The notes beneath the pieces were generated by a model. That model saw only the letters and a program-made list of their open reading frames with translations, ran no database searches and had not been told where the DNA came from. Below are positions 1 through 22,521 of a DNA stretch of 26,472 bases, in pieces. The translations under genes were made by a program, and so were the position numbers. Source of the stretch: a virus (lineage: Duplodnaviria > Heunggongvirae > Uroviricota > Caudoviricetes); the IMG/VR virus record IMGVR_UViG_2630968705_000016. One strand, written 5' to 3'. Within the stretch, counting starts at the first letter, position 1. The number at the start of each line of letters is the position of its first letter.

Positions 1-555
1 ATGCTTATTGGCTATGTACGTGTGTCAACAAATGACCAGAACACAGATCTACAACGTAATGCGCTGAACTGTGCAGGATGCGAGCTGATTTTTGAAGACA
101 AAATAAGCGGTACAAAGTCCGAAAGGCCGGGACTGAAAAAACTGCTCAGGACATTATCGGCAGGTGACACTCTGGTTGTCTGGAAGCTGGATCGGCTGGG
201 GCGCAGTATGCGGCATCTTGTCGTGCTGGTGGAGGAACTGCGCGAAAGTGGCGTTAATTTTCGCAGCCTGACGGATGCTATTGATACCAGCACGCCGATG
301 GGGCGTTTTTTCTTTCATGTGATGGGTGCCCTGGCTGAAATGGAACGAGAACTGATTGTTGAACGGACAAAAGCTGGACTGGAGGCCGCTCGGGTGCAGG
401 GGCGAATTGGTGGGCGCCGCCCCAAACTTACACCAGAGGAATGGGCGCAGGCCGGGCGATTAATTGTATCAGGAGTTCCTCGCCAGAAGGTGGCTATTAT
501 CTATGATGTTGGTGTGTCAACTTTGTATAAGCGGTTTCCAGTAGGTGATAAATAG
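1..555 (+). CDS. pin: Serine recombinase, DNA invertase (Pin/Hin/Gin/Cin family)
   Basis: 184-aa ORF from ATG at 1. N-terminus MLIGYVRVSTNDQ with catalytic Ser context, VVWKLDRLGRS and C-terminal HTH (VSTLYKRF) match my recollection of Pin/Hin invertases nearly residue for residue. Confidence 0.9.
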   Translation: MLIGYVRVSTNDQNTDLQRNALNCAGCELIFEDKISGTKSERPGLKKLLRTLSAGDTLVVWKLDRLGRSMRHLVVLVEELRESGVNFRSLTDAIDTSTPMGRFFFHVMGALAEMERELIVERTKAGLEAARVQGRIGGRRPKLTPEEWAQAGRLIVSGVPRQKVAIIYDVGVSTLYKRFPVGDK

Positions 556-820
556 AACTAAAGAAAGTTCATAGGTAGGAGTATGCAATGACATATTGTT
601 TGAAATTTATACTATAAAATTAAACGATTAACAGTTTTATACTATATCAAAGCAGATTCAGGACATTTGAGTAGTGAGATAATCGCTTTATTATAGCATC
701 CATATTATGTCGAACATTGTTGCGAAGCCTCTGTAAGGTTAATGCTTGTTTTTATTATAACTATTTGATATGTTGAGTTTTAGATTGCAATATTAATGTC
801 AGTTTAGCGATAAAGGGGAG

Positions 821-1999
821 TTGATGAACAGTTCAGCATTTGTACTTGAAGATAAGAGAGTTGATTGTCTCTCTGTTATTCACACGACAAAATTATCAGA
901 GTATTTATTATTTGCTGAAAAAGCATATGAAGAGAAAGGTGGCATATATGGTCAAAGGGCTCCTCTTAAAACTAAAACTGCTCAAACTATTCGTGAGAGA
1001 ATGGTATCTGATATAATTGATGGGGCTGTTTTACCTCCAATAGTTATCGGAGTAATTGTTGATAATGATACTTATGAGCTTATTAGAAATGTTCGCGATG
1101 ATAAATCATTTGAAGATTTAAATAAAACTATTGATAAATCGTCTTTATCCATTATAGATGGTATGCAAAGAACTACAGCTTTTTTAGAGGCTGTAAAACA
1201 AAGTGAAGAGGTAAAAAATAAGACAATAAGGATAGAATATTGGTTTTCGAAAAGCATGAATAGCCTGATATACAGAATGTTAGTTCTGAATACAGGCCAA
1301 GTTCCATGGGATATAAAAAGGCAATTAGATACTATTTATGACTCTATAATCAAAGAGTTAAAAGAGTCTATACCTAATTTAGACATCAGACTTATTGGGC
1401 AGTCAAGCAGGAGAACGCAAGCAGGCCAATATCAAAGTAGTAAGTTAATAGAGTATTTTTTGTGTTTTTCATCCAGAAAGACTGACATAGACCTTAAAGA
1501 GAAAGTTTCAGAAGATTTTGCTCGCATGGATGCTATTGAGTCAACCTCAGATAATGACTTTTTATCTAAATTTAAATCAGTGCTTAAATTAATGGTTGAC
1601 TTAGATCATGAGTTTTCAAGATTCAAAGATGAGCAGCAGGAGGGGCGCATCAAAGTCGGTAAGGATATATTTACAAGTATTCCTGCTGGTGTAGGGTTTG
1701 TTGCAGCAGCTGCAACATATATTTATGGCCCTCCAGGATTCAAATCCACTAAAGAAGAAAGTGACAGGTGCTGTCAGGATCTTATTAAAAAAGTCTCTGG
1801 TTTAATTGATAAACTCAAAGATTTAAAGGAAAATGAGTTAGGGCTGTTTTTACAGTTTCCTCTTTTAAATGAAAAGTTGAGTGCCAGATCTAGTAAAATA
1901 GGTCAATATGAAAGGGAGTTTTATTATAAAGCTTTTGAAGCTTGTTTTAAATATATTGAAAGATTAGAAGATTTTGGACCATGTTGGCAGGCTAAGTAA
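821..1999 (+). CDS. Hypothetical protein with DGQHR/DUF262-like (ParB/Srx superfamily) motifs; candidate defence component
   Basis: 392-aa ORF in a strongly AT-rich block. RBS AAGGGGAG upstream (start could be the second ATG at 824). Motifs IYGQRAP, then PPIVIGVIV, then SIIDGMQRTTAF (nt 1157-1171) resemble the QR...DGQ(H/Q)R signature of DndB/DUF262 proteins. Stop overlaps the next start (TAATG at 1997-2001). Confidence 0.7.
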   Translation: MMNSSAFVLEDKRVDCLSVIHTTKLSEYLLFAEKAYEEKGGIYGQRAPLKTKTAQTIRERMVSDIIDGAVLPPIVIGVIVDNDTYELIRNVRDDKSFEDLNKTIDKSSLSIIDGMQRTTAFLEAVKQSEEVKNKTIRIEYWFSKSMNSLIYRMLVLNTGQVPWDIKRQLDTIYDSIIKELKESIPNLDIRLIGQSSRRTQAGQYQSSKLIEYFLCFSSRKTDIDLKEKVSEDFARMDAIESTSDNDFLSKFKSVLKLMVDLDHEFSRFKDEQQEGRIKVGKDIFTSIPAGVGFVAAAATYIYGPPGFKSTKEESDRCCQDLIKKVSGLIDKLKDLKENELGLFLQFPLLNEKLSARSSKIGQYEREFYYKAFEACFKYIERLEDFGPCWQAK

Positions 2000-3105
2000 T
2001 GGCAAGAATTAAAGAAAATATAAACTATATTTTTGATGCTATTTGCCATGCTGGTGGTGAAACTGCAACTAGAAAAAAAATGAAGCCGGCACCAGTGGAA
2101 CAAGAGGAAATGAATTGTTTCAAACGGTTAAAATTTAATAAGGGGGAGTCTTTTAGTATATTTAATGGTATTACTATTGCTCACTTCCAAGAAAATATAA
2201 AAGATGATAATGGTTCTGAAATAATTATTGATTATTTTGCGGTTAAAAATATCGCATCATCTGAATTTCAAAGTGAGCTTTATAACAATTATTTTAGTAT
2301 ATATGACTTAACTGAATCTTTTTTTGTTTTTCTTTGCCCTATTTTAAATTTAAAAGTTAAAGATGATATTTCGTCGCAAACTATTTCTAATGATCTGCTT
2401 TTCCAGCAAGAGGATCCTTTATATATAGGGCATAATATTTCTGAATTGATTAATTATTTTGAATCAATAACTATTTTTCGGTTGGAGGATTTATCTACAA
2501 ATTTTAATAACTCTTTTCTTTCTTGCGCGTATTATATACTTACTAGTTGCGAGACTTTTGTTACATTACCACTATCAAAAGCTACTGTTGATAAATTGAA
2601 AAATCTTTTCGTTTGTAATGAAAAAATTCCACAGGATAATATCTTTTTATCATTGACTTCATCGCATTTAAAGCATTGTTATCTCGAATTGTATAGGTGT
2701 ATTGAATGGTTGTATGTGATTCCTAGAAGCAGGAGATTAAAAGGTGTAATTCAATTCCCAAGGCCAGCATATGAGCTGGCTCTTCATTGTATTGATGAAC
2801 TATCTTGGCGTAGAAAAGAAGAGGATTCTTTAGCAAAAATTGTATCTGACGTATTAAAAAAAAATGAAACGCTAAGTTTTAAGTTGTTGGGATGTAAAAT
2901 GTTTTCTGAAGAAAACCTTAATTTTAATAATGTAGCAAAGCATTTATACGCAATACGAAATCAATTCGTTCATCAACTTGAAGCCAAAAGAGAAAAAGTT
3001 GTTAGTGATGATGATATAATAGATGCAATTGAAATAATTGCAGATATCGTCATTTCTGCATACGAGTTATATGATGCCGATATAATTGAATGGCAATGTA
3101 ATTGA
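1999..3105 (+). CDS. Hypothetical protein with C-terminal HEPN-like Rx4H motif (putative RNase effector)
   Basis: 368-aa ORF translationally coupled to the upstream gene, same AT-rich composition. Motif AIRNQFVH (R-N-x-x-x-H, nt 2956-2973) near the C-terminus fits the HEPN Rx4-6H signature. No other recognisable domain. Confidence 0.65.
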   Translation: MARIKENINYIFDAICHAGGETATRKKMKPAPVEQEEMNCFKRLKFNKGESFSIFNGITIAHFQENIKDDNGSEIIIDYFAVKNIASSEFQSELYNNYFSIYDLTESFFVFLCPILNLKVKDDISSQTISNDLLFQQEDPLYIGHNISELINYFESITIFRLEDLSTNFNNSFLSCAYYILTSCETFVTLPLSKATVDKLKNLFVCNEKIPQDNIFLSLTSSHLKHCYLELYRCIEWLYVIPRSRRLKGVIQFPRPAYELALHCIDELSWRRKEEDSLAKIVSDVLKKNETLSFKLLGCKMFSEENLNFNNVAKHLYAIRNQFVHQLEAKREKVVSDDDIIDAIEIIADIVISAYELYDADIIEWQCN

Positions 3106-3917
3106 ATTTTATATGTTGTGATTAATTAATCATCTAGTCACCCAATGAGTATTACAAAGTATATTTTATGCTGGAATGCAAATTGGGTGAGTTATTATAT
3201 AATGGTGATTGGTCATTAAGTGCTGTAGGGCATATATATTAAAAATAAATATGTCTATTTCTGGAAACTACAAAGTATTGGCAAGGTTTTATTATGCTAA
3301 AGGTGTTATTTTATTATTTTAAAATACCTTAGTGTCCATCGTTTATTTTTATTATAAATCAATCTTAAATTTTACAATGCTGATGTATTGCAATTAAAAA
3401 AATGGCTTAAGCTTATTTTTCTTGTTTTTGATATAAATATTAATGTTGTGTTTTTTTTAAAATAAACATTTAACTCATAACTATTATAGTTAATAAAAAG
3501 AAAATAATATTTTATTATATACTATTGAGTTAGTATTCCGTATTGGCGATTTAATTGAAAGATAACGAAATTCTTCCGCCACCGCTTTGAGTTGCGAGAA
3601 AAGTCATCTATTCGAATGCGTATTATGGAATCATGGTTTCATTAATGGTTATTCAGTAGAGAACCATCTTCATCTGGCACAAAATAACGATAGTTATGAC
3701 TGTCTACATCTCGGAAATATAATAATTTTTAATGCGACTTATTGCGGTTTCCTTTTCATATTACCTTGCAACGATCAGTTTTGTAGCTTATTTCTGCAAT
3801 AAAGTTATTTACAGTTTCGCGGTTTTTCTCTTGCATTTGTTCAGTAAAGCAACTTGCCAGCATACTGGACTGCACCTTAATCAGTTGGACGTCCAACTGA
3901 TTAAGGTGCATTTTTTT

Positions 3918-4399
3918 ATGGCAAAGCCAAAATATTCTCTCGAAACCAGTAATCATTATCTTGCCGGACATAATGGCGCACGTCGTATCGCTGAACGTTT
4001 TGGTGTTGAAGAAACATCAGTGCGACGCTGGGTAAGAGCCAGGCAACTCCACGGTATTGATGGTATTACATTGAAAAATGACCGTCACTCTCCTGAGTTT
4101 CGACTGACGGTTGTCCAGAGGGGTCTGAGTGAAGAACTTACCATGCGCGAGGATGCCGCACGGTTTAATATCTCAAATGAATCCGTTGTTAGGCACTGGG
4201 TGAAGATTTACAAAAACACTGGTGAAGAAGGACTTCTGAACATAAAACCAGGCCGGAGCAAGGACATGACAAAACCTCAAAAACACCTCCACTTACCGAT
4301 GCAGAACTGGAAAAGTTATCTCCCGAAGAACTGCGGACTCAACTCCGTTACCTTCGCGCAGAAAATGCCTATCTAAAAAAGCTGAAGGCCTTAGTTTAA
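3918..4399 (+). pseudogene. IS3-family transposase OrfA, frameshifted
   Basis: Starts MAKPKYSLETSNHYLAGHNGARRIAERFGV (HTH). The expected C-terminus ...ELRTQLRYLRAENAYLKKLKALV is readable only in a different frame from the N-terminal part, implying a frameshift near 4270-4300. Confidence 0.7.
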
Positions 4400-5266
4400 A
4401 GCGAGAAAAACGGGAGAAAGCCCGGATAATCAGTGAATTAAGGCTGAAGCATGCGCTCGGTGATCTTCTGCGTGCCGCGGGGATGTCCCGCAGTACGTGG
4501 TATCACAATATGAATGCCCTGAAGCGAGTGGACAGGCATGCCGGACTGAAAGACAAAAACAGAGAGATTTATCACTATCACAAAGGGCGTTATGGCTACC
4601 GCAGAATCACGCTCTCACTGGGAAACAGGGCTTGTTGGTAAACCATAAAACAGTGTAGCGGCTGATGGCAGAGCTGTCGCTCCGCTCTGTGATAAGGGTG
4701 AAGAAATATCGTTCTTGGAAAGGGGAAGTAGGCAAGGCTGCGCCCAACATCCTGAGCCGGAACTGTGGTGCAACGAAGGCCAACGAAAAATGGGTGACGG
4801 AAGTTACAGAATTCTCGGTACAGGGTAAAAAGCTGTACCTGTCGCCAGTTCTCGATCTGTTTAACCGGGAGATTATCTCCTACAGCCTGTCAGAAAGGCC
4901 GGTGATGTAGATGGTTAATACGATGCTGCACGATGCATTCCCAGTGATCGGCCCGGAGGATGCACTGTTGCTGCACACGGATCAGGGCTGGCAATATCGA
5001 ATGGCAGGCTATCAGGCAAAGTTAAAGGCTAAGGGAATGACACAAAGCATGTCGTGCAAGGGAAACTGCCTGGATAACGCAGTGATGGAGAACTTCTTCG
5101 GCACACTGAAATCGGAGTGTTTTTACCTGAACAGGTTCAGCGATCCAGATTAACTGAGGAAGGCTATAGAGGACTATATCCATTATTATAACAACGAGCG
5201 GATCAGCCTGAAATTAAAAGGCCTGAGTCCGGTAGAATACCGAATCCAGGCCCTGAAAACCGCTTA
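4381..5266 (+). pseudogene. IS3-family transposase OrfB (DDE integrase core), disrupted
   Basis: OrfB-like sequence (…WVTEVTEF…[23 protein letters not shown]…, …LLLHTDQGWQY…CLDNAVMENFFGTLKSE…) is split across frames, with a frame break near 4640 and in-frame stops at 4908-4910 (TAG) and 5151-5153 (TAA). Confidence 0.7.
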
Positions 5267-5438
5267 ATATGAGCTGTCCAACTTTATGGGGCAGTCCATA
5301 AGTGGGCTTCTATGTCACTAAAGAGCTGCGGCTCCTTTGCGTATCCTTTTTTGTCTCCTCACCGTCTGGTCGGTGTCTTACTTAGACTGCTAACTTCTTG
5401 TTTTTATTGGTGTTGTCCTTACACCGTCCAATCATGAT

Positions 5439-5466
5439 TGGTGGAGCTGGCGGGAGTTGAACCCGC
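5439..5466 (-). other. tmRNA (ssrA) 3'-end fragment, likely att-site remnant
   Basis: Minus strand reads GCGGGTTCAACTCCCGCCAGCTCCACCA, matching the 3' terminal 28 nt of E. coli ssrA as I recall it. Flanking sequence does not continue as ssrA. Confidence 0.6.
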
Positions 5467-5767
5467 AGACACGTCGTATGCAAGAACTTGCTGCGGCTGG
5501 ATGGTGGACTTTCGATAGTGCGAGTATTGAATGATTTCCATCTATTATAGATTTTACCGTATTTCGGCATGAATGAAACTGAATATCCTCCCACCGACCC
5601 TCCATGACTTTACACCACTGTCTCTGGGGCTGCTATGTGCCAGTAGAGGACGTTGCTAGTGTCAGCCTATGTTAATCAACAGGGAGCAGGTCACACTGTC
5701 GTCTCAGAATACCTAGCGCATAGGTCACACGAACTTCCAACTGTATTGCTTGTTTTCGTGGCTAAGC

Positions 5768-6907
5768 CTATTTTTGTTGATGATACCAATGCAACATCAT
5801 CCGGAGCTTCAATAGAGTTGTACTGTCATCATCCTCAGAACAAAAATTGTATCGCCCGCCTGAATATTCATTTAACTTGTCCAAGTAAAAGCCACCCATT
5901 GGGTCATATCTATCAGAGTGGAGCCAAGTAAACATTTTCTGAAGAACGTAATGCAGGGCATTTTTCGGAAGTGTTGAAATCAACACGCCATGCTTAGTTG
6001 CTAAATCCTCAATATTCATTTCCTGAAGATTATATCTAATCTCTACTGCAATTGGATGTAGTTTACTTAAAAATACGTCAGCTTCATCCTTGAGATGTGC
6101 CTCTTTAACATTCCCCTCGAACAACTTTATTAACTCTTCCACTTCCATTCGGTAATAATCGTTATCACCTCGCACCGCAACTTCTGAAAGAAGCAACTTT
6201 AACTCAGCATGAATGTTATCAGTAGACGGTATAATCTGTTTGGATAGGGTGCTGTAATGTTTTATACGGATTGCTATTACGGAACCCTTTAGGCTTGTTA
6301 GATATTTATACCTATCTTCAATATATGTAATTAGCTCATCGAATTTAATGCCGAAAATAACATCATCTTTCCCTGGCGTGTTGTTGTAAAGGCTTATAGT
6401 GAAATCATTTTCATTGAAAGCATGAAAATGAGGCCAGCTTGCAAACAGTCGCTCACCATCACTATTTTTAAGATTTGTAGGGTGAGCACCAAAGATAGCT
6501 CGAATACTCTTAAAGTATGCGTCATCATCCTCATGTGAAAGATAGGGCGTTTTATTCTTAAAGACATTCGTTGATTTCTTGAAAGGCCACCTCGCTAACT
6601 TATCATCACTCTCAATGATGCGGTGAAGCTGCTGCAACGCCTCCACAGCAATATCAATAGATGATATAAGGCAGTAAACCTGCATGGCCTTGACATCAAT
6701 ATCTTCCGACAGCTCAGGGAAGTTCATCAGATTGCGAACAGAAACGCTTATCCAATCCATGCACGAACAGATAGGGCTGAACTGGTTTTTACCATTTCTG
6801 TTTATGAAGTAGCTGTAAGCAAACTCCCCTTCATTAACCACATCTCGAAAATCAGTTATTAAAGTATCATCAATAGTTACACCAAAATCTGCCTTGGTCA
6901 TCTTCAT
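5768..6907 (-). CDS. Hypothetical protein (about 379 aa), AT-rich orphan gene
   Basis: Long minus-strand ORF. The six-frame track starts at a TTG (6922); the first ATG is at 6907 and a second at 6901. No clear SD. No domain recognised by eye. Confidence 0.75.
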   Translation of the reverse strand: MKMTKADFGVTIDDTLITDFRDVVNEGEFAYSYFINRNGKNQFSPICSCMDWISVSVRNLMNFPELSEDIDVKAMQVYCLISSIDIAVEALQQLHRIIESDDKLARWPFKKSTNVFKNKTPYLSHEDDDAYFKSIRAIFGAHPTNLKNSDGERLFASWPHFHAFNENDFTISLYNNTPGKDDVIFGIKFDELITYIEDRYKYLTSLKGSVIAIRIKHYSTLSKQIIPSTDNIHAELKLLLSEVAVRGDNDYYRMEVEELIKLFEGNVKEAHLKDEADVFLSKLHPIAVEIRYNLQEMNIEDLATKHGVLISTLPKNALHYVLQKMFTWLHSDRYDPMGGFYLDKLNEYSGGRYNFCSEDDDSTTLLKLRMMLHWYHQQK

Positions 6908-7301
6908 GGAAATCACTTTCAAATCAGCACACTTAGAGGTTGATTGTGACCGTTATCATAGGCAAAAACAATTCAGTAGGTTGACCAGCCCCCCCCCATA
7001 ACGCAAAATTGCTCGATTTAAGTATGCATTCCAACTTCCGCTCCTCGCTCATAACAGACATTCACTACAGTTATGGTAGAAGGTATGCATGCTGGGTGGG
7101 GAAAGTATGAAGGAAAAGAAGGCTGCTGTGTCGTTTGACATCACTGCAATCTTCTTATTGGTTATGCGGGTCGTAGTGGGACAAAACTGAGACACATAAG
7201 GCCTAGCAATGGCTTGCAAGGCTTTACATGTTTTGATGTGGTGGGACTTGTGAGCGCAGTGTTGATGGGGTAATGCTTTGAATTAGAAGCGGATTCTTAT
7301 A

Positions 7302-7512: not shown

Positions 7513-8727
7513 GTGAAACTCAATGCCCGTCAAATAGACACAGCCAAGCCAAAAGAGAAGGCTTACAAGCTGGCCGATGGTGGCGGTTTGTATCTCTTGG
7601 TAAAACCTAATGGAGGTAAATACTGGCGACTTAAATATCGTGTAGCTGGTAAAGAGAAGCTATTGGCACTAGGTGTGTATCCTGAGGTTACTCTAGCCGA
7701 TGCTCGGGCAAAACGAGAAGATGCGAAAAGAGGTATCGCTGGTGGTATCGATCCGATGGAAGCGAAACGAGAGGAAAAGATTGCCCGGGAAACGCAGTTA
7801 AACAACACCTTCAAAGATATTGCCCTTGAGTGGCACAGCAGCAAATTAAAAAAATGGTCTGCTGGTTATGCTTCAGACATCCTCGAAGCCTTCAACAAAG
7901 ATGTGTTCCCTTACATTGGCAAAAAACCAATCGCCGAAATCAAACCACTTGAACTTCTGAATGTGCTGCGGCGCATCGAGGGGCGCGGTGCGACAGAAAA
8001 AGCCAAAAAAGTGAGGCAGCGGTGCGGGGAAGTTTTCCGTTATGCAATAGTCACTGGTCGCGCAGAGTATAACCCTGCACCAGACCTTACTAGCGCGATG
8101 CAAGGCCATGAATCTAATCATTACCCTTTCCTTACGACCAAAGAATTACCTGATTTTTTCAAGGCATTGTCCAGTTACTCAGGAAGCGCATTGGTTGTTA
8201 TGGCGGCTCGTCTACTGATTATCACCGGCTTGCGAACTGGCGAACTACGTGGCGCATTATGGGATGAAATTGATTTCAACAAGGCTATATGGGAGATACC
8301 CGCTTCACGTATGAAAATGCGGCGGCCTCATATTGTGCCATTGTCTGAGCAGGCTCTTTCGCTTATTGGGAAGATTAGAGAAATAACAGGCAATTACCCT
8401 CTTATGTTTCCCGGGCGCAATGATCCAAGGAAAACAATGAGTGAGGCCAGCATAAACCAAGTGTTTAAGCGCATTGGCTACGCTGGACGTGTAACTGGTC
8501 ATGGGTTCCGACACACTATGAGCACGATTTTGCATGAGCAGGGCTATAACACCGCGTGGATAGAAACGCAGCTCGCTCACGTTGATAAGAACTCAATTCG
8601 TGGCACATACAACCATGCGCAATATCTGGATGGACGGCGGGAGATGCTTCAATGGTATGCCGACTATATGGATTCTCTCGAGCATGGCGGAAATGTGGTG
8701 CATATGGTGTTTGAAAAACACGCATGA
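7513..8727 (+). CDS. int: Tyrosine recombinase, P4-type phage integrase
   Basis: 404 aa, GTG start with GGAGG RBS. N-terminal signature (KLNARQIDTAKPKEK...DGGGLYLLVKPNGGKYWRLKYR) typical of P4-family integrases. Catalytic elements GLRTGELR, HGFRHT and RGTYNHA (R, HxxR, Y) present. Confidence 0.93.
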   Translation: MKLNARQIDTAKPKEKAYKLADGGGLYLLVKPNGGKYWRLKYRVAGKEKLLALGVYPEVTLADARAKREDAKRGIAGGIDPMEAKREEKIARETQLNNTFKDIALEWHSSKLKKWSAGYASDILEAFNKDVFPYIGKKPIAEIKPLELLNVLRRIEGRGATEKAKKVRQRCGEVFRYAIVTGRAEYNPAPDLTSAMQGHESNHYPFLTTKELPDFFKALSSYSGSALVVMAARLLIITGLRTGELRGALWDEIDFNKAIWEIPASRMKMRRPHIVPLSEQALSLIGKIREITGNYPLMFPGRNDPRKTMSEASINQVFKRIGYAGRVTGHGFRHTMSTILHEQGYNTAWIETQLAHVDKNSIRGTYNHAQYLDGRREMLQWYADYMDSLEHGGNVVHMVFEKHA

Positions 8728-10635: not shown

Positions 10636-10807
10636 GCCGACAGGAACACCACAACCTCAAAAACGCTACAAAGATGCCCACGGAGCACTCGTTACTGTCG
10701 AAAGCGTGTCTCACAACCGAGTGACGTTTTATCGCGACGGGTATCAATCGCCATGCGTACAACCGCTGGCGCGTTTCATGAAGGAGTTCGCGGAGGTTAA
10801 CCAATGA
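10628..10807 (+). CDS. Small hypothetical protein (59 aa), possibly DUF4222-like
   Basis: ATG at 10628 overlaps the upstream stop (ATGTTTAA). Sequence MFKPTGTPQPQKRYKDAHGALVTVESVSHNRVTFYRDGYQSPCVQPLARFMKEFAEV. Confidence 0.45.
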   Translation: MFKPTGTPQPQKRYKDAHGALVTVESVSHNRVTFYRDGYQSPCVQPLARFMKEFAEVNQ

Positions 10808-11241
10808 TACCCATCCAGAAGAAGACATTTTCACTGGCTGGTATGTCGCCAAAATCCAGAAATATGACGGCAAAGTCAGGCATTAATACAGCAGATACAA
10901 GCAAAGTTTATCATTTGCTGGTGGCCGGAACGGATGCCTTAACCATACCAGAAATCTCGGGCGATGATATTAGCCTTGAGAAGGTCAGCGGCTGCGCCAG
11001 AAAATTTCTGGTCGTAGATGATGTCTTCCGCTCGTGTAGTGACTCCACAAAAACATTCGTCCACGCGCGTGACGTTAACGAAATGAGCGCGATGTACTGT
11101 GCTTCTGGTTCTTCCAATAGTGAGTTTTCGGAGTCCATAAAAAAGAGCTTGCCGTTATGCGGCAACACGGTTTATGGTTATAAGGCACCTCATAAAACGG
11201 GTGCCGGGTTTCGCAGCCCGGAAATGTACGAGGCGACACAT

Positions 11242-11263
11242 GACGCGCCGAGCGTCTTTTTTT
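11242..11263 (+). terminator. Rho-independent terminator-like hairpin plus T7 run
   Basis: GACGC-GCCGA-GCGTC hairpin (11242-11256) followed by TTTTTTT (11257-11263). Lies inside the annotated 355-aa ORF 10804-11871. Confidence 0.5.
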
Positions 11264-11465
11264 GTGCCGTTAGCCAGACTCACACTTTTTTCAGTGATGT
11301 GGTTATAATCCGCGTCGCTTGCAAAATTATGGTGGGCTGGACAGGGCAGCCGAAAGGCTGGCCGGTTTCCTTGTACGCCGGTACTGCGAACTCTGTTCAG
11401 TCCACCACCAGCGAGTTTCGCAGCTCCGGTGGTGGGAAGAATTCCCAGTACAAGGAGGCTGCCAC

Positions 11466-11660
11466 ATGCTGGCTACTACCCCTACCCAAAAACCGCAATT
11501 TATCTGGATTATCGCCGCAGTTCGCCGCGATTGCCCGACAATTACCGCCAAAATTCATCATATTGCTGCCGAGTCTGAACGCGATGCTCGCCGTTCTCTG
11601 GTGCGCGATCACGTCTGCTTTTTTGCTGGTCGTATCCGCATGGAGGTGGCACATGATTAA
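11466..11660 (+). CDS. Small hypothetical protein (64 aa)
   Basis: ATG preceded by AAGGAGG RBS; codon usage (ctg, gcc, cgc) is much more gene-like than the overlapping frame of the long ORF. MLATTPTQKPQFIWIIAAVRRDCPTITAKIHH... Confidence 0.55.
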   Translation: MLATTPTQKPQFIWIIAAVRRDCPTITAKIHHIAAESERDARRSLVRDHVCFFAGRIRMEVAHD

Positions 11661-11871
11661 AACCTACGATGTGCATATGGATCCCCTCGAACGCACAAGC
11701 CAGATCATCACACTGACAGAAGTGATTAACGACATTCTGGTGAGCAACTCTCCCTCACGAGACGAAAGACTGAAGGCGTTACTCGCGATATTGGATCTCG
11801 CCGTTCGTGACGTTCATTTCCTGCTGGAAGGTGGCGAAATGCCAGGAAAAACGGGGGCAACCAATGAATAA
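11655..11871 (+). CDS. Small hypothetical protein (72 aa)
   Basis: Internal ATG of the long ORF with GGAGGTGG RBS; overlaps the upstream stop (ATGATTAA). MIKTYDVHMDPLERTSQIITLTEVINDIL... Confidence 0.5.
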
Positions 11872-17352: not shown

Positions 17353-17814
17353 ATGGAACTAAAATTTATTGATAACCCTGTGCGATTACAGGCCTTTCTT
17401 AACGAGCCAGGCAATACCGAAAATATTGTTGAGCCGGGGCACACGTACTACATCAAGCCTGATGCGGTATATCTCGGCATCTACGAAGGATTAGTGCTGG
17501 CTGGCGTTCATGAAGTGCGTAACTTCTGGCATAGCGTTGTTGAATGCCATGCGGTGTACGACCCCGGATTCCGTGGTGAATATGCACTGCAAGGGCATCG
17601 ATTATTCTGCAAATGGCTTCTCGAAAACTCACCATTCCTTAACAGCATTACCATGGTTCCTGACACCACCAAATACGGACGGGCAATTATCCGTTTGCTT
17701 GGCGCTACCCGTGTTGGTCACCTTGATGATGCTTATATCAGATGTGGTAAACCCGTCGGCGTAACGCTTTATCAGTTAACTCGGCAACAATATAAGGAAT
17801 TCAGCGAATGTTAA
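17353..17814 (+). CDS. Hypothetical protein (153 aa), first gene of the ejection-like cassette
   Basis: ORF coupled to the downstream gene (ATGTTAA overlap); no domain recognised. Confidence 0.7.
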   Translation: MELKFIDNPVRLQAFLNEPGNTENIVEPGHTYYIKPDAVYLGIYEGLVLAGVHEVRNFWHSVVECHAVYDPGFRGEYALQGHRLFCKWLLENSPFLNSITMVPDTTKYGRAIIRLLGATRVGHLDDAYIRCGKPVGVTLYQLTRQQYKEFSEC

Positions 17815-18485
17815 TTACCCACATAGCTCATAAACATCTCAATCGTGCCGTATACGAAAAAGGCGGTGATGGTGGTGCCTCTAAAGCTCAGGCGAAGGCC
17901 CAGCAGCAGGCAATTGATTTGCAGCGCGAGCAGTGGAATACGGTGATGAATAATCTCAAGCCGTATGCAGAAGTCGGATTGCCTGCTTTACAACAACTAC
18001 AAGGACTGATGACTCTGGAAGGGCAGAATAAAGCCGCGAATGATTTCTTTGGTTCTGGTTTATATAAAACACAGGCAGATCAGGCCCGTTATCAGAACCT
18101 TGTCTCAGCAGAAGCTACCGGGGGGCTTGGCTCAACAGCTACCAGTAACCAGTTATCTTCCATTGCGCCCATGCTTTATAACAATTGGCTCAGTGGGCAA
18201 ATGCAAAATTATGGAAACCTGCTAAATGTCGGGATGAATGCGGCATCAGGGCAGGCAACGGCAGGGCAAAACTACGCCAATAATACCGGACAACTCTTGC
18301 AGGGGCTTGGCGCTATTCGTGCAGGTCAGGCGCAGCAGCCATCCAGTCTTGCGCGTGGTATTGGTGGGGCAGCATCAGGCGCTTTAGCGGGTGCGCAACT
18401 TGGTTCCGTTGTTCCTGGAATAGGAACTGCGGCCGGCGCTATTGGTGGTGGGCTTATTGGTCTTGTTGGGGGGCTTGGATTCTAA
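17808..18485 (+). CDS. Hypothetical protein with glycine-zipper-like C-terminus (225 aa), internal-virion/ejection-like
   Basis: Q/A/N/G-rich; C-terminal GIGGAASGALAGAQLGSVVPGIGTAAGAIGGGLIGLVGGLGF suggests a membrane-inserting glycine zipper. Coupled to flanking genes. Confidence 0.75.
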   Translation: MLITHIAHKHLNRAVYEKGGDGGASKAQAKAQQQAIDLQREQWNTVMNNLKPYAEVGLPALQQLQGLMTLEGQNKAANDFFGSGLYKTQADQARYQNLVSAEATGGLGSTATSNQLSSIAPMLYNNWLSGQMQNYGNLLNVGMNAASGQATAGQNYANNTGQLLQGLGAIRAGQAQQPSSLARGIGGAASGALAGAQLGSVVPGIGTAAGAIGGGLIGLVGGLGF

Positions 18486-19804
18486 TGGCGACATGGCAAC
18501 TTGGCGGGCTGCCTAGCATGGCACCGCAAAATGATAATGCTCCTCGTTCTTCCGTTCCTCAGCCTGTGCAGTATCAGCAGCAGCCAAACGTAGGTTTAAT
18601 GGCGCTACAGGGGCTAAGAGGCGTTGCTGAGATTAATCAGCAGGCGCAAATTTCCCAGCAGTTAAAAGAATATCAGGCACGGTTGGGTAGTGCGGTAGCT
18701 AATAATGATCGTGTTGGCGTGCAGAAGTTAATGGCCCAGTATCCCCAGTTTATGGCTGATTCTCAAAAACAGATGGGATTCATTGATGCTGAGCAAAATC
18801 GACAGACCGCTGACGCTGCCATGAATCTGCGTCTTGCGTCACAAACTGGAGATCCACTGACCATGCAGAAGGCCATTCAGCAGGCAAATCCAGTATTACA
18901 GCGATTTGGTCTTCCTGCTGAAGAGGTTTATCAGTCTTGGCAGAATGACCCACAGGAATTCAACAGAATCACTGACCTCATCCACCTCCATGCTGATCCA
19001 AATAGTTACTTTAGTGTTCAAGAGAAGCAGCAAGGGCAGAGCATTGCACAGCAGAACGCAGATACATCCGCATATAATGCTCAGGTTAATGCGGAACAGG
19101 GTAATCGACGTCTCGATATGGAGCAGTTCAAAGTCCTATCCGATAACCAACTACGCACGAGAGAAATGGTTCTGAAAGCACGACTTGGACGTGCTCAAAA
19201 TGACATCGAGAGAGACAAGCTCAATGCTGAACTGAGCAAGATACAGCAGGCGAAAGTGGAGAAGATGAACGATAAAATTAATACTGTTGCAGGTAACATC
19301 GACTCCTTGAACTCTGCGCTTGAAGTGGGTCATGAACTGGCGGGAATTGTAGGGAAACATCCTTCGGCCGTTACCCGCTCGCAGAACTATAACCCCCTGA
19401 CGCTGGGGTTTGGATTCCTTCCTGATGTAGCAGAAGACACACGAAGCCTACGCGCCAAAGCTGATGAATACAACCTAAAGGTTATTCTGCCTAGCCTCAA
19501 AGGGACTTTTGGCTCTAACCCAACCGAAGGGGAAAGGGCTGCCCTTATGCAATCTCAAAATGGCATTAAGTCAGCAACCAGCAATGAGGCATTTTTGCGA
19601 GAGTTGAATAAAGCGCAGGACGTAATTATTCGAATGCAGAAACGACAGATTGCCGGGCTCGGTATTCCTGTAACCAAATCTAAGGACGAAGAAACTGATA
19701 CCAAAATGCTGTTGCAGGATCCTTCACTGGTTAAGGATTATGTGACCGCACATGGCTATCTGCCGGAAAGTTACTATCAGGCAAAACTTAAGGGATGGCA
19801 ATGA
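18485..19804 (+). CDS. Hypothetical Q-rich protein (439 aa), internal-virion/ejection-like
   Basis: Start overlaps the upstream stop (TAATG); low-complexity Q/N/A-rich composition typical of phage internal core proteins. Confidence 0.8.
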   Translation: MATWQLGGLPSMAPQNDNAPRSSVPQPVQYQQQPNVGLMALQGLRGVAEINQQAQISQQLKEYQARLGSAVANNDRVGVQKLMAQYPQFMADSQKQMGFIDAEQNRQTADAAMNLRLASQTGDPLTMQKAIQQANPVLQRFGLPAEEVYQSWQNDPQEFNRITDLIHLHADPNSYFSVQEKQQGQSIAQQNADTSAYNAQVNAEQGNRRLDMEQFKVLSDNQLRTREMVLKARLGRAQNDIERDKLNAELSKIQQAKVEKMNDKINTVAGNIDSLNSALEVGHELAGIVGKHPSAVTRSQNYNPLTLGFGFLPDVAEDTRSLRAKADEYNLKVILPSLKGTFGSNPTEGERAALMQSQNGIKSATSNEAFLRELNKAQDVIIRMQKRQIAGLGIPVTKSKDEETDTKMLLQDPSLVKDYVTAHGYLPESYYQAKLKGWQ

Positions 19805-22521
19805 TGGCACAACTGACAGAAAAACAGAAAGCCTATTCCCGTCATCTCGATGAAAAATATGGTTTCCCATCAGGGACGATGGAAACATTAGTTGGCAATG
19901 AATCTAGTGGTAACGGAAGTGCCGAGTCACCGAAAGGAGCTAGAGGATTTGCTCAACTGATGCCCTCAGTAATGAGTGATGCTGGTTATCGTGGAACAGA
20001 TCCGCGCTCACTGCCATTTGAAAAGCAAATGGATATCGCAGCAAACCATCTCAATAAAGGAATGAAGCGATTTGGTGATATAGGTATGGCATTGGCTGGG
20101 TATAATTCTGGCTATGCTCGTATTAATGCCGTCAGAAACGGTAAATCTACACTGCCAGATGAAACGGCTAATTACGTAAGTAAATTTGCAGATGCCGGAA
20201 TAATCCCTGATGACAGTGAAATCTTGCAGTTTGCACAAACCAGTCAACATCGCAATCTTCAGCAGCCTGACTACTCAGAGCTTGATAAAGAAATCTCTCA
20301 GGTGGGAGATATTTCTGCATGGGAAGCAAAACGTCAGCAATTTAAGAACATAGAAGCAGGACTACCAACAGCCAGTTCATGGGAGCAGAAAAGAGCTCAG
20401 TTTCTCGCCGATGAAAATGCCGGGGAACCGCAGCAGCAAGTAGCCAAGTCTAACCTTAATCCTGAGATGGAATATCTTTCGCCAGGACTGAAAGCTGCGC
20501 CAGAGCAGATGGCCAGAGGGATTGCTAATATACCGTTTGATGTAATGGACGCAGGCGTGGGGGTAGTCAATGCGGCGCAATCAGCCGGAGCATGGGCAGC
20601 TCAGAAGCTTGGTGTGGGTGATGGCACATACACGCCCATATCACCTGTCTTTCGCCCAGTAGACCAACCTACAGATCCATACGCGCAGGCTGGTGAGCAG
20701 CTAGCACCTTACCTTATTACAGGATTAGGTGTAGGAAAGGCAGCTACCGCAGCTTCTTCAGTTGCCAACGCTCCACGTGCTGAACGTGCGGCCACAAAGG
20801 TGGCTAGTATGTTGGCAGAAAACCTGCCAGGTACATTGGTGAACGCCCAAAAGAACGGGCAGATCAGCCCAGAAGACCTAGCAAAAGAGACAGGTATTGG
20901 CCTAGCAGGATCGCTAGGAGCACGCGCTTTAATAAAGAGCGGACAGACAGCCAGTGACGTAATGCGAGATGTATTGCGGAGTAATACAAATCAATCAGGC
21001 CATGTGTTAGGGGCAGCAAATACTCTGGAAACCGCCAATGATGTATCGAAAGCAGCGCGTTCTGCCGTAGGCCGAGAGCATATCGCATCGCAGGCATCAA
21101 ACGTCAGAGATGATGTCGCTAAGGCGGCGAAAATCACTGGTATTAATATCAACACCCTGACGCCTGGAATGCGCTCAGGTAGTCGTGGAATTGCCCAAGC
21201 AGAAGGTGTTCTGGCATCAACTCCTGGGAATGTTCAGGATGCTCACCTTACGGCCTTCAATGAAATATCCTCAAAGTTGAATAAGCAGTTGTCTGATTTC
21301 GGTGCTGAGTCTGGAAGCGCATCAGAAAAAAGCGCAGCAATTAAAGAGCGCATCATCGCGAGCCTCAGTGATATGAAAACAGCAGAGAATATGGCATGGG
21401 CAGAACTGCGAAGCACGATGCCACGCGAAAGGATGAAAATGAGTAATGGGATGGCTGTCGTCCAAGCAGAAAAAGCAGCCAATGTTCCACTCAGCCCGGA
21501 GATGAAACAGTTTCAGGCTGCCAACAACCAAGGTGGCGGCATAACCTTCGACGGGATGAAGGCATGGCGTGCTAAGTTTGCTGATGCTGAACAAGCAAAC
21601 ACCCGGGCAGGTAAGGCCAATGCCGCCCGGATTGCCGGAGAAATGCGCAGAGCTATCACTGATGACATGCGCATCATGGCTGAAAAAGGAAACTTCCTCA
21701 CAGAATGGCAGAAAGCTAACGATCTCTCTAAAAGTTACATTATCGCCAAACAAAATGCCGAATCTGTTTTTGGTCGAGATCTCGCATCAGACGCTATGGT
21801 AAGAAAAGGTGCCGATACGCTTAAGGCATCCGCAAACACTGGAACGGGAGCTTTTCACCGTCTTATCTCCGCGCTGCCGGAAGCAGAACGCCAACCTGCA
21901 ATAGCATCTATTCTTCAGCATGCTGTGGCGCAGGGAGAGAAGGGAGGAATCGGTGAAGAGTCAGGTATCCAGTATTTTGCCAAGCTCATGACCCAGCAGA
22001 ATGTAAACGCCATCAGTCGTCATGCGCCAGATCTCGGTAGAATGATGAAAGAGTTCGGTGTACTCGCTAAAGCCAGTACCAGACCGCAGCGATACGTAGA
22101 GCGCACGGGAAGAACAACTGAGGCTCTCAAAACGCTCGATTCAGGCCTTCCAAAGATCGTCGGCGTGATTATGAACGGTGTTCAACAGTCAGGTGCGATC
22201 GCTGGAGGCTTTGGCGGTGGTGTAATTGGTTCGATTAGTGGTTTGGTTGCTGGTGGCGCGCTAAGAAATGCTGTGGCTAAGATTGGGGCGACAAGAAGTG
22301 GTCGATATGCGATAGAGAAAGCCGTTCAGGAAGCTACAAAAGCAGTGCGCGCAGGGGCATCACCAGCAGCGATCGCCGCAGCAGAGAAACGATTTTCGGC
22401 CAATAAAATTGCCATGAAAGCAATTCGTGATGCCGTTGGGGCTGAAGAATTCGTGAAACTGACAAGGGCCGGGATTGTAGCTACCCTCAGTGGCATGAAA
22501 GATGTTAGCGAATGGGAATAG
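19795..22521 (+). CDS. Large protein with N-terminal lytic transglycosylase (SLT) domain (908 aa), T7 gp16-like architecture
   Basis: N-terminal motifs ESSGN (catalytic Glu context), GFAQLMP and AGYNSGYA match SLT family signatures. The remainder is long and A/G/Q/S-rich with a glycine-rich segment (GAIAGGFGGGVIGSISGLVAGG) near the C-terminus. Confidence 0.88.
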   Translation: MAMMAQLTEKQKAYSRHLDEKYGFPSGTMETLVGNESSGNGSAESPKGARGFAQLMPSVMSDAGYRGTDPRSLPFEKQMDIAANHLNKGMKRFGDIGMALAGYNSGYARINAVRNGKSTLPDETANYVSKFADAGIIPDDSEILQFAQTSQHRNLQQPDYSELDKEISQVGDISAWEAKRQQFKNIEAGLPTASSWEQKRAQFLADENAGEPQQQVAKSNLNPEMEYLSPGLKAAPEQMARGIANIPFDVMDAGVGVVNAAQSAGAWAAQKLGVGDGTYTPISPVFRPVDQPTDPYAQAGEQLAPYLITGLGVGKAATAASSVANAPRAERAATKVASMLAENLPGTLVNAQKNGQISPEDLAKETGIGLAGSLGARALIKSGQTASDVMRDVLRSNTNQSGHVLGAANTLETANDVSKAARSAVGREHIASQASNVRDDVAKAAKITGININTLTPGMRSGSRGIAQAEGVLASTPGNVQDAHLTAFNEISSKLNKQLSDFGAESGSASEKSAAIKERIIASLSDMKTAENMAWAELRSTMPRERMKMSNGMAVVQAEKAANVPLSPEMKQFQAANNQGGGITFDGMKAWRAKFADAEQANTRAGKANAARIAGEMRRAITDDMRIMAEKGNFLTEWQKANDLSKSYIIAKQNAESVFGRDLASDAMVRKGADTLKASANTGTGAFHRLISALPEAERQPAIASILQHAVAQGEKGGIGEESGIQYFAKLMTQQNVNAISRHAPDLGRMMKEFGVLAKASTRPQRYVERTGRTTEALKTLDSGLPKIVGVIMNGVQQSGAIAGGFGGGVIGSISGLVAGGALRNAVAKIGATRSGRYAIEKAVQEATKAVRAGASPAAIAAAEKRFSANKIAMKAIRDAVGAEEFVKLTRAGIVATLSGMKDVSEWE

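Follow-up and report, generated by a model that had tools for sequence, protein, structure and literature searches.

Sequence-based assignment of an E. coli prophage gene pair to the Dazbog anti-phage defence system

Dazbog and the AT-rich gene pair

Dazbog is an anti-phage defence system named by Millman et al. in 2022, which in its verified Bacillus representatives consists of two genes, dzbA and dzbB, encoding proteins of ~390 and ~360 amino acids. The Bacillus system protects via abortive infection and turns toxic upon expression of the cytosine methylase of phage SPR; phages that escape it have lost CCGG methylation, and the DUF262 domain of DzbA was proposed by the authors as a sensor of modified DNA (10.1101/2022.08.27.505566). 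Dazbog defence is lost when the DUF262 gene is mutated or deleted (PMC10952713). DzbB was labelled 'hypothetical' in the discovery preprint, and the mechanism was still termed unclear by a 2025 review (PMC12409349). The published evidence for phage defence, abortive infection and the cytosine-methylase trigger comes exclusively from Bacillus homologues. The known distribution of the system is wider: Table S15 of the preprint lists members in Serratia marcescens, Klebsiella pneumoniae, Enterobacter, Aeromonas and Pseudomonas syringae/savastanoi, and a published list of systems found in E. coli includes Dazbog (PMC10121019). The accessible part of the supplements of the E. coli defence-island paper leaves it unmentioned.

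The DNA analysed here (the window) is the whole 26,472-nt stretch of IMG/VR virus record IMGVR_UViG_2630968705_000016. Near its left end it carries two co-oriented genes on the plus strand, dzbA (ORF1, 824-1999, 391 aa) and dzbB (ORF2, 1999-3105, 368 aa). The RefSeq start of dzbA is the ATG at 824, with the TTG at 821 as a possible alternative; its stop codon TAA and the ATG of dzbB have one base in common (gctaagTAATGgca, a TAATG overlap). The operon is preceded on the same strand by an AT-rich intergenic leader (556-823) with the ribosome-binding site AAGGGGAG at 809-816, which ends 7 nt ahead of the ATG. The native promoter presumably lies within this leader; a promoter scan of positions 500-3800 yielded fewer candidates than shuffled sequence, i.e. 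no better than chance, and all terminators found in the same region fall within coding regions, with none 3' of dzbB. The GC content is 0.28-0.35 across positions 501-3500, compared with 0.52 in pin and ~0.5 over most of the window. Upstream of dzbA lies an invertase gene with Resolvase and HTH_7 domains (1-555), called pinE by RefSeq in the identical E. coli genomes, and downstream of dzbB a frameshifted IS3 pseudogene (3918-5267). The preliminary description of this DNA, made from its letters, had recognized the translational coupling, the AT-rich block, the invertase and the dead insertion sequence, and was right in each of these points. No flanking direct repeats marking a discrete cassette insertion were found in a repeat search of 540-3950, and no RNA family was matched by Rfam over 1-6000.

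Both proteins were compared with the Dazbog models of PADLOC-DB and with the verified sequences of B. mycoides GOE9 and B. cereus FORC_013 (Millman et al. 2022; Stokar-Avihail et al. 2022/2023), taken from Table S2 of the preprint. ORF1 matches the DzbA model over its full length (E = 1.6e-54, 183.8 bits; residues 9-390 on profile positions 8-383 of 393), and ORF2 matches the DzbB model weakly, though near full length (E = 1.3e-7, 29.5 bits; residues 73-352 on 36-327 of 341). Other DzbB proteins of the clade, encoded beside a strong DzbA, reach only 1.6e-9 to 1.4e-3 with this model or do not match it. The PADLOC models are centred on the verified Bacillus proteins, which themselves score 9e-150 (GOE9 DzbA) and 1e-83, and this explains why the enterobacterial clade scores lower. 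In a direct BLASTP comparison the window DzbA aligns end to end with the verified GOE9 DzbA (residues 17-375, 23% identity, E = 7e-19). For DzbB, hhalign of a 22-sequence profile against the verified protein gave only 24 columns, covering the Rx4H segment, with a probability of 4.6%. A profile of 70 DzbB sequences from other species aligned with the two verified proteins in three collinear blocks of the C-terminal half, namely the Y...E helix, EE..L and RN..VH (E = 6e-7 and 7e-6, in a database of these two sequences).

The gene order is that of Dazbog, with dzbA upstream and dzbB adjacent and co-oriented, and the two-gene composition and protein sizes agree as well. In common with the verified Bacillus DzbA, the window protein has QR, DGxQRT and the YRML.LNTGQ.P block; in both DzbB proteins Rx4H follows the Y...E helix and lies ~40-45 residues from the C-terminus, and neither pair contains DUF1524. 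The taxa of Table S15 are those with the closest homologues of the window proteins. Differences also exist. The window copy is prophage-borne and belongs to a Gram-negative host, and its DzbB can be aligned with the verified Bacillus protein over the C-terminal HEPN half only.

Given the PADLOC matches, the alignments with verified proteins, the taxa of Table S15 and the report of Dazbog in E. coli (PMC10121019), the pair is therefore, judged by its sequence, profile matches and gene order, an E. coli copy of a named system and not an undescribed one; it is real, and probably defensive in role. The preliminary description had held that it matches no named system. This was wrong, as indicated by the PADLOC assignments, the alignment with the verified DzbA and the Enterobacterales members of Table S15; in substance the pair had already been described under an existing name, Dazbog, which is the outcome that the description itself had named in advance as speaking against it. 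Its domain calls stand and its claim of novelty falls.

Conserved motifs and family spread

DzbA of the window is a DUF262/ParB-Srx-like protein whose N-terminal domain is DUF262-like and whose C-terminal half is helical. Its first DUF262 motif, Q45-R46 (codons at 953-958, plus strand), is found without exception in a set of 83 DzbA sequences, to which the verified GOE9 protein belongs. In the same set, the DGxQR signature of DUF262, which is DGMQR in the window (D113-R117, codons at 1157-1171, plus strand), is invariant in D113, G114, Q116 and R117, as is the next residue, T118, and further invariant residues belong to the block YRML.LN.GQ.P. The Pfam model GmrSD_N/DUF262 is sub-threshold on the window protein (21.5 bits, cut-off 33.2) and matches all 22 aligned members of the family. 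Together with the invariant QR and DGxQR motifs, these matches bear out the suggested relationship of the first gene product to DUF262/ParB. Searches for closer relatives gave little: the DndB match to the window DzbA has only 14 bits and the DGQHR match 13 bits (cut-off 58.85), no nuclease match was found for the helical C-terminal half, and a Foldseek comparison of the DzbA model with PDB returned nothing significant, with SspE, BrxU and Spo0J on top (E at least 0.26). PDB sequence-profile searches with the family alignments of DzbA and DzbB found no relative, NCBIfam gave nothing useful for either protein, and DUF1524 was absent from both in a Pfam scan.

DzbB consists of an N-terminal alpha/beta domain (approximately residues 1-200), for which no match was found, followed by a C-terminal HEPN domain (~205-360) with the helical-bundle fold characteristic of HEPN. 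Among 70 DzbB sequences, conservation of at least 90% is observed at seven positions only, and three residues only, E236, R320 and H325, are invariant. E236 (70/70) is situated, together with Y232 (69/70), in the YRCIEW segment of the first HEPN helix (codons at 2692-2709, plus strand). R320 and H325 (70/70 each) delimit RNQFVH, the Rx4H motif of HEPN (codons at 2956-2973, plus strand), in which N321 is found in 65 of the 70 homologues; both verified Bacillus DzbB proteins have RNLYVH at the equivalent position. The HEPN_Apea model scores 20.5 bits on the window protein, missing its Pfam gathering threshold of 24.4, and matches 10 of 22 DzbB homologues. A Serratia homologue with 67% identity has a precomputed match to PF18739 and is named 'HEPN domain-containing protein' at NCBI.

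The second gene had thus been correctly recognized as encoding a HEPN protein with an Rx4H motif. QR, DGMQR and RNQFVH, all noticed in the initial reading of the letters, turn out to mark the positions that stay unchanged in the two families, as seen in ~70-83 homologues belonging to many phyla, and for this reason they are far beyond chance. The invariance of E236, R320 and H325 is the pattern expected of a catalytically active HEPN domain. No paper assigning a HEPN domain to DzbB was found in a literature search; what seems to be new here is that, throughout the family and including the verified Bacillus proteins, nothing in DzbB is more conserved than the putative HEPN catalytic signature.

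The association of the two genes was surveyed in one genome per species, giving 80 DzbA loci at 35-60% identity from Proteobacteria, Cyanobacteria, Bacteroidota, Firmicutes, Actinobacteria and other phyla. In approximately 70 of the 80 loci the next gene on the same strand is an ORF of 340-400 aa that matches the DzbB profile, usually overlaps dzbA or starts a few bases away, and has R[N/H]xxxH ~45 residues from its C-terminus. Shewanella oneidensis MR-1 also has dzbA upstream of an adjacent, co-oriented dzbB. The exceptions have a truncated dzbB or, rarely, an orphan dzbA; both in Table S15 and in the locus survey it is dzbB, not dzbA, that is repeatedly fragmented in natural genomes. When other effectors were sought downstream of DzbA, the loci lacking dzbB were found to hold an unrelated PFOR housekeeping gene or nothing, and hence there is no evidence of effector swapping. 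DzbA is by far the more conserved of the two proteins: the same kind of search finds 2306 homologues of DzbA versus 30 of DzbB, and between the same genomes identity is 45-60% for DzbA versus 25-35% for DzbB.

The prophage cargo slot downstream of pinE

A block of 2.8 kb containing the pair is present, with at least 99.8% identity, in 9 of 5426 complete E. coli genomes. These genomes come from different hosts and countries, the block is chromosomal in all of them, and both genes are called 'hypothetical protein' by RefSeq. In each case the block lies between pinE and ssrA, where a complete prophage has its right end. The carrier prophage encodes a P27-type terminase, an HK97 capsid and a Mu-like baseplate, and some of its genes bear e14 names (ymfR, ymfQ, tfaE and pinE). 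Up to position 5466 the window shares 99.8% identity with E. coli T43, and then it diverges; the point where identity stops coincides with the last 28 nt of ssrA (5439-5466, minus strand), the att core and end of the prophage. Beyond this 3' end of ssrA, the window contains a second element with an integrase.

In 2869 E. coli genomes, homology to the pinE prophage ends at positions 557-564, and only the nine genomes continue into the AT-rich block, which is therefore variable cargo starting right after pinE. In e14 of K-12 the same slot contains mcrA, as the preliminary description had stated, and in other prophages it contains a LEM-3-like GIY-YIG protein. A tblastn search of 50,697 phage records with DzbA found no match, so that none of the deposited phage genomes encodes a homologue. 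The Dazbog operon belongs to the accessory cargo of an e14-family prophage that has inserted at ssrA, and lies at the right end of that prophage; the expectation of a horizontally acquired operon without a DUF1524 DNase, carried by a prophage in a defence slot, is in agreement with this. The E. coli prophage instance of Dazbog and the cargo slot that it has in common with mcrA are new here.

Proposed mechanism and comparison with known systems

The model that best fits both the Bacillus literature and the domain evidence is one in which DzbA senses and DzbB, as an RNase, arrests growth. The ParB/Srx-like, nucleotide-binding DUF262 domain of DzbA would recognize modified, e.g. cytosine-methylated, phage DNA and pass a signal on to its partner DzbB, whose C-terminal HEPN domain, probably as a dimer with a composite Rx4H active site, would cleave RNA and so bring about growth arrest or abortive infection. 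We infer that the E. coli copy is active, with DzbA as its sensor and DzbB as its RNase and toxic effector. Taken as a whole, the explanation of the locus as a Dazbog operon, carried as cargo by an e14-family prophage, with a DzbA sensor and a DzbB HEPN RNase as its most likely mechanism, is in our judgement very likely correct.

One published observation complicates the sensor/RNase model. A dzbB deletion construct was not transformable, 'possibly due to toxicity', which fits a DzbA that is harmful without DzbB. The roles within Dazbog could then be reversed, with DzbA toxic through DNA binding, nicking or nucleotide hydrolysis, DzbB acting as an antitoxin-like restraint, and the HEPN domain of DzbB involved in regulation, in the sensing of RNA or in some second activity. 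The failed deletion is listed together with those of psyrA, shosA and rmrA. Judging from the names, we take these to be the antitoxin genes of PsyrTA, ShosTA and RosmerTA. The much stronger conservation of DzbA in both homologue number and identity would also suit a toxic DzbA, and nuclease activity is known for some ParB-fold domains (PMC3710099), but in GmrSD, BrxU and SspE DUF262 is the sensor/NTPase and not the effector (PMC10952713). Nor would fragmented dzbB genes and persisting orphan dzbA genes be expected if DzbA alone were lethal, and the restriction of invariant DzbB residues to E236, R320 and H325 points to a catalytic HEPN domain rather than a scaffold. On this balance we consider the reversed assignment unlikely.

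The remaining alternatives concern the identity and the state of the locus. It could be a decaying or silent derivative of Dazbog, stranded in a non-functional form at the prophage end by the dead IS3; yet both ORFs are intact, full length and retain all family-invariant residues, the copies in nine genomes from diverse sources remain nearly identical, and the good ribosome-binding site and coupled stop/start have been kept, which makes decay very unlikely despite the adjoining frameshifted IS3, the rarity of the block among complete E. coli genomes and the absence of a promoter distinguishable from chance. Still less credible is a defence system distinct from all named ones, a reading that is extremely improbable and, at the family level, refuted. 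It could appeal to the RefSeq label 'hypothetical protein' of both genes in 9/9 carrier genomes and to the weak similarity of DzbB to the verified proteins, with its 24-column hhalign result, but it is contradicted by the PADLOC matches, which are full length for DzbA and near full length for DzbB, by the order, sizes and invariant motifs common with the verified Bacillus systems, and by the presence of the same proteobacterial taxa in the Dazbog table and of Dazbog among systems listed for E. coli (PMC10121019).

As a Dazbog copy with a predicted DzbA sensor and DzbB RNase, the locus is of modest value: the system is already known, the picture of defence systems is unchanged, and the additions, a family-wide HEPN signature, an E. 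coli prophage instance and a slot in common with mcrA, are small. They have practical consequences nonetheless. Both genes can be relabelled dzbA and dzbB in the nine complete genomes; a Gram-negative, prophage-borne Dazbog becomes usable for tests in E. coli with natural phages; and the invariant E...Rx4H signature defines clear point mutants bearing on whether Dazbog kills via RNA cleavage.

Known proteins with a HEPN domain provide one comparison. Set against the HEPN abortive-infection and toxin proteins (AbiA C-terminal domain, AbiD/F, HEPN-MNT toxins, RnlA/LsoA and Csm6/Csx1), DzbB lacks any MNT, CARF or reverse-transcriptase partner or fusion, and it has its own N-terminal domain of ~200 aa and a near-obligate DUF262 partner. 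The adjacent gene encodes this DUF262-like partner and not the nucleotidyltransferase antitoxin of HEPN-MNT modules. Nor is there the setting of a DndB regulator beside dndACDE modification genes: no dnd genes are located nearby, the neighbours being pinE and the IS3 remnant. Associations of ParB/DUF262 with HEPN were catalogued in general by Anantharaman et al. in 2013 (PMC3710099). Their sets (e.g. the MAE_28990 family, Saro_3948 and VNG7073) likewise combine a ParB fold with HEPN in restriction-modification-like or defence contexts; by their description they are set apart by MAE_28990 and Swt1-like HEPN families and other architectures, as opposed to the Apea-like domain here.

The same slot, which directly follows pinE at the att-proximal end of e14-family prophages, is occupied by McrA in e14, and a response to cytosine-methylated DNA has been published both for McrA and for the Bacillus Dazbog. 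The sequences are unrelated. McrA works as one protein, an HNH restriction endonuclease of type IV that cuts modified DNA, whereas Dazbog is a two-protein abortive infection system. The slot after pinE in sister prophages holds McrA, a GIY-YIG nuclease or Dazbog, an example of temperate phages exchanging modification-dependent defences while the cargo site stays the same.

In GmrSD, BrxU and SspE, as probably in DzbA, an N-terminal DUF262 nucleotide-binding sensor carries a DGQQR-type motif; these systems sense modified DNA, as is proposed for Dazbog, and like it they reside in defence islands or on mobile elements. Each of them is one polypeptide that includes a DUF1524 DNase or nickase of the HNH type, whereas the window pair lacks DUF1524 and its presumed effector is a separate HEPN protein, for which reason RNA rather than DNA is the predicted target. 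The lack of DUF1524 and the separate partner are traits of Dazbog as already described and not of this locus. We would give even weight to the truth and the falsity of a broader proposal, according to which DzbB is the RNase effector in all Dazbog systems and the functional replacement of McrA in the e14-family slot. If it is true, the invariance of E236, R320 and H325 gives a new mechanistic lead that can be tested directly, on a system already known and not on a new one, and Dazbog would be a modification-sensing DUF262 module with RNA cleavage as its output, as opposed to the DNA cleavage of GmrSD, BrxU and SspE.

Variation of DzbB among relatives

In the Dazbog defence pair, the gene for the HEPN-domain protein, dzbB, has been fragmented or truncated repeatedly in nature, as in several strains of P. 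savastanoi, Dolichospermum, and Aphanizomenon (Table S15 of the Millman preprint) and at three of the homologous loci collected in this analysis (L032, L047, and L069). The DUF262-like partner gene dzbA, by contrast, is almost always intact. One possible reason for the recurrent breakage is that a costly effector is selected against. A different kind of variation is observed at five other homologous loci (L015, L016, L033, L045, and L083), where the RNxxxH motif of DzbB is replaced by RHxxxH. Proteins of this group score far lower on the DzbB profile (E-values from 1e-4 to 1e-9), are still paired with a well-conserved DzbA, and may constitute a separate DzbB subfamily.

The ssrA attachment site and the second element

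Only the final 28 nt of ssrA are present in the window (5439-5466), and no tmRNA gene was detected there by ARAGORN. Since this remnant is followed by a second element (5467 onward), which encodes an integrase (7513-8727), an AntA antirepressor, Ash, and a P4-alpha-like primase with a DUF927 domain, the arrangement suggests mobile elements in tandem at the ssrA attachment site; such a tandem was not seen in the nine complete genomes possessing the Dazbog pair. P22-type DNA-ejection genes, namely those for a DUF2824 protein, a gp7-like protein, an injectosome translocase, and a 908-aa protein with an SLT domain, are located on the plus strand at 17353-22521, downstream of the P4-like primase, a layout that indicates a mosaic in which podovirus-like modules are combined with satellite-like ones. 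Two Rfam matches above the gathering score, isrK (11185-11262, 69 bits) and C4 antisense RNA (11325-11412, 81 bits), lie on the plus strand of the second element, both within the ORF called as an Ash-family gene (10804-11871).

Between the ssrA-derived att core and the integrase, a moderately AT-rich patch (GC 0.36-0.41) contains a 384-aa ORF on the minus strand (5768-6922), which has no significant match in Pfam, PADLOC, or NCBIfam. Its counterparts in other E. coli, labelled hypothetical, show about 97% conservation, and its place next to an integrase gene makes it a candidate for an accessory or defensive function.

The surroundings of the Dazbog pair

On the downstream side, dzbB is separated from the IS3 remnant by a very AT-rich stretch of about 800 bp (3106-3917), with GC content falling to 0.25. 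Neither a convincing ORF nor an Rfam match was found in this stretch, nor a terminator-like site directly 3' of dzbB. A perfect 40-bp palindrome (3871-3910; TGCACCTTAATCAGTTGGAC / GTCCAACTGATTAAGGTGCA), lying directly upstream of the IS3 pseudogene start, may be part of an IS end or two abutted ends.

On the upstream side, the position after the invertase gene pinE was compared with the corresponding slots in other E. coli (L085-L089). It looks like a swappable site for nuclease or defence cargo, since the same position is occupied by mcrA, directly after pinE, in K-12-type e14, by a LEM-3-like GIY-YIG domain protein encoded on the opposite strand in other E. coli prophages, and by Dazbog in this window.
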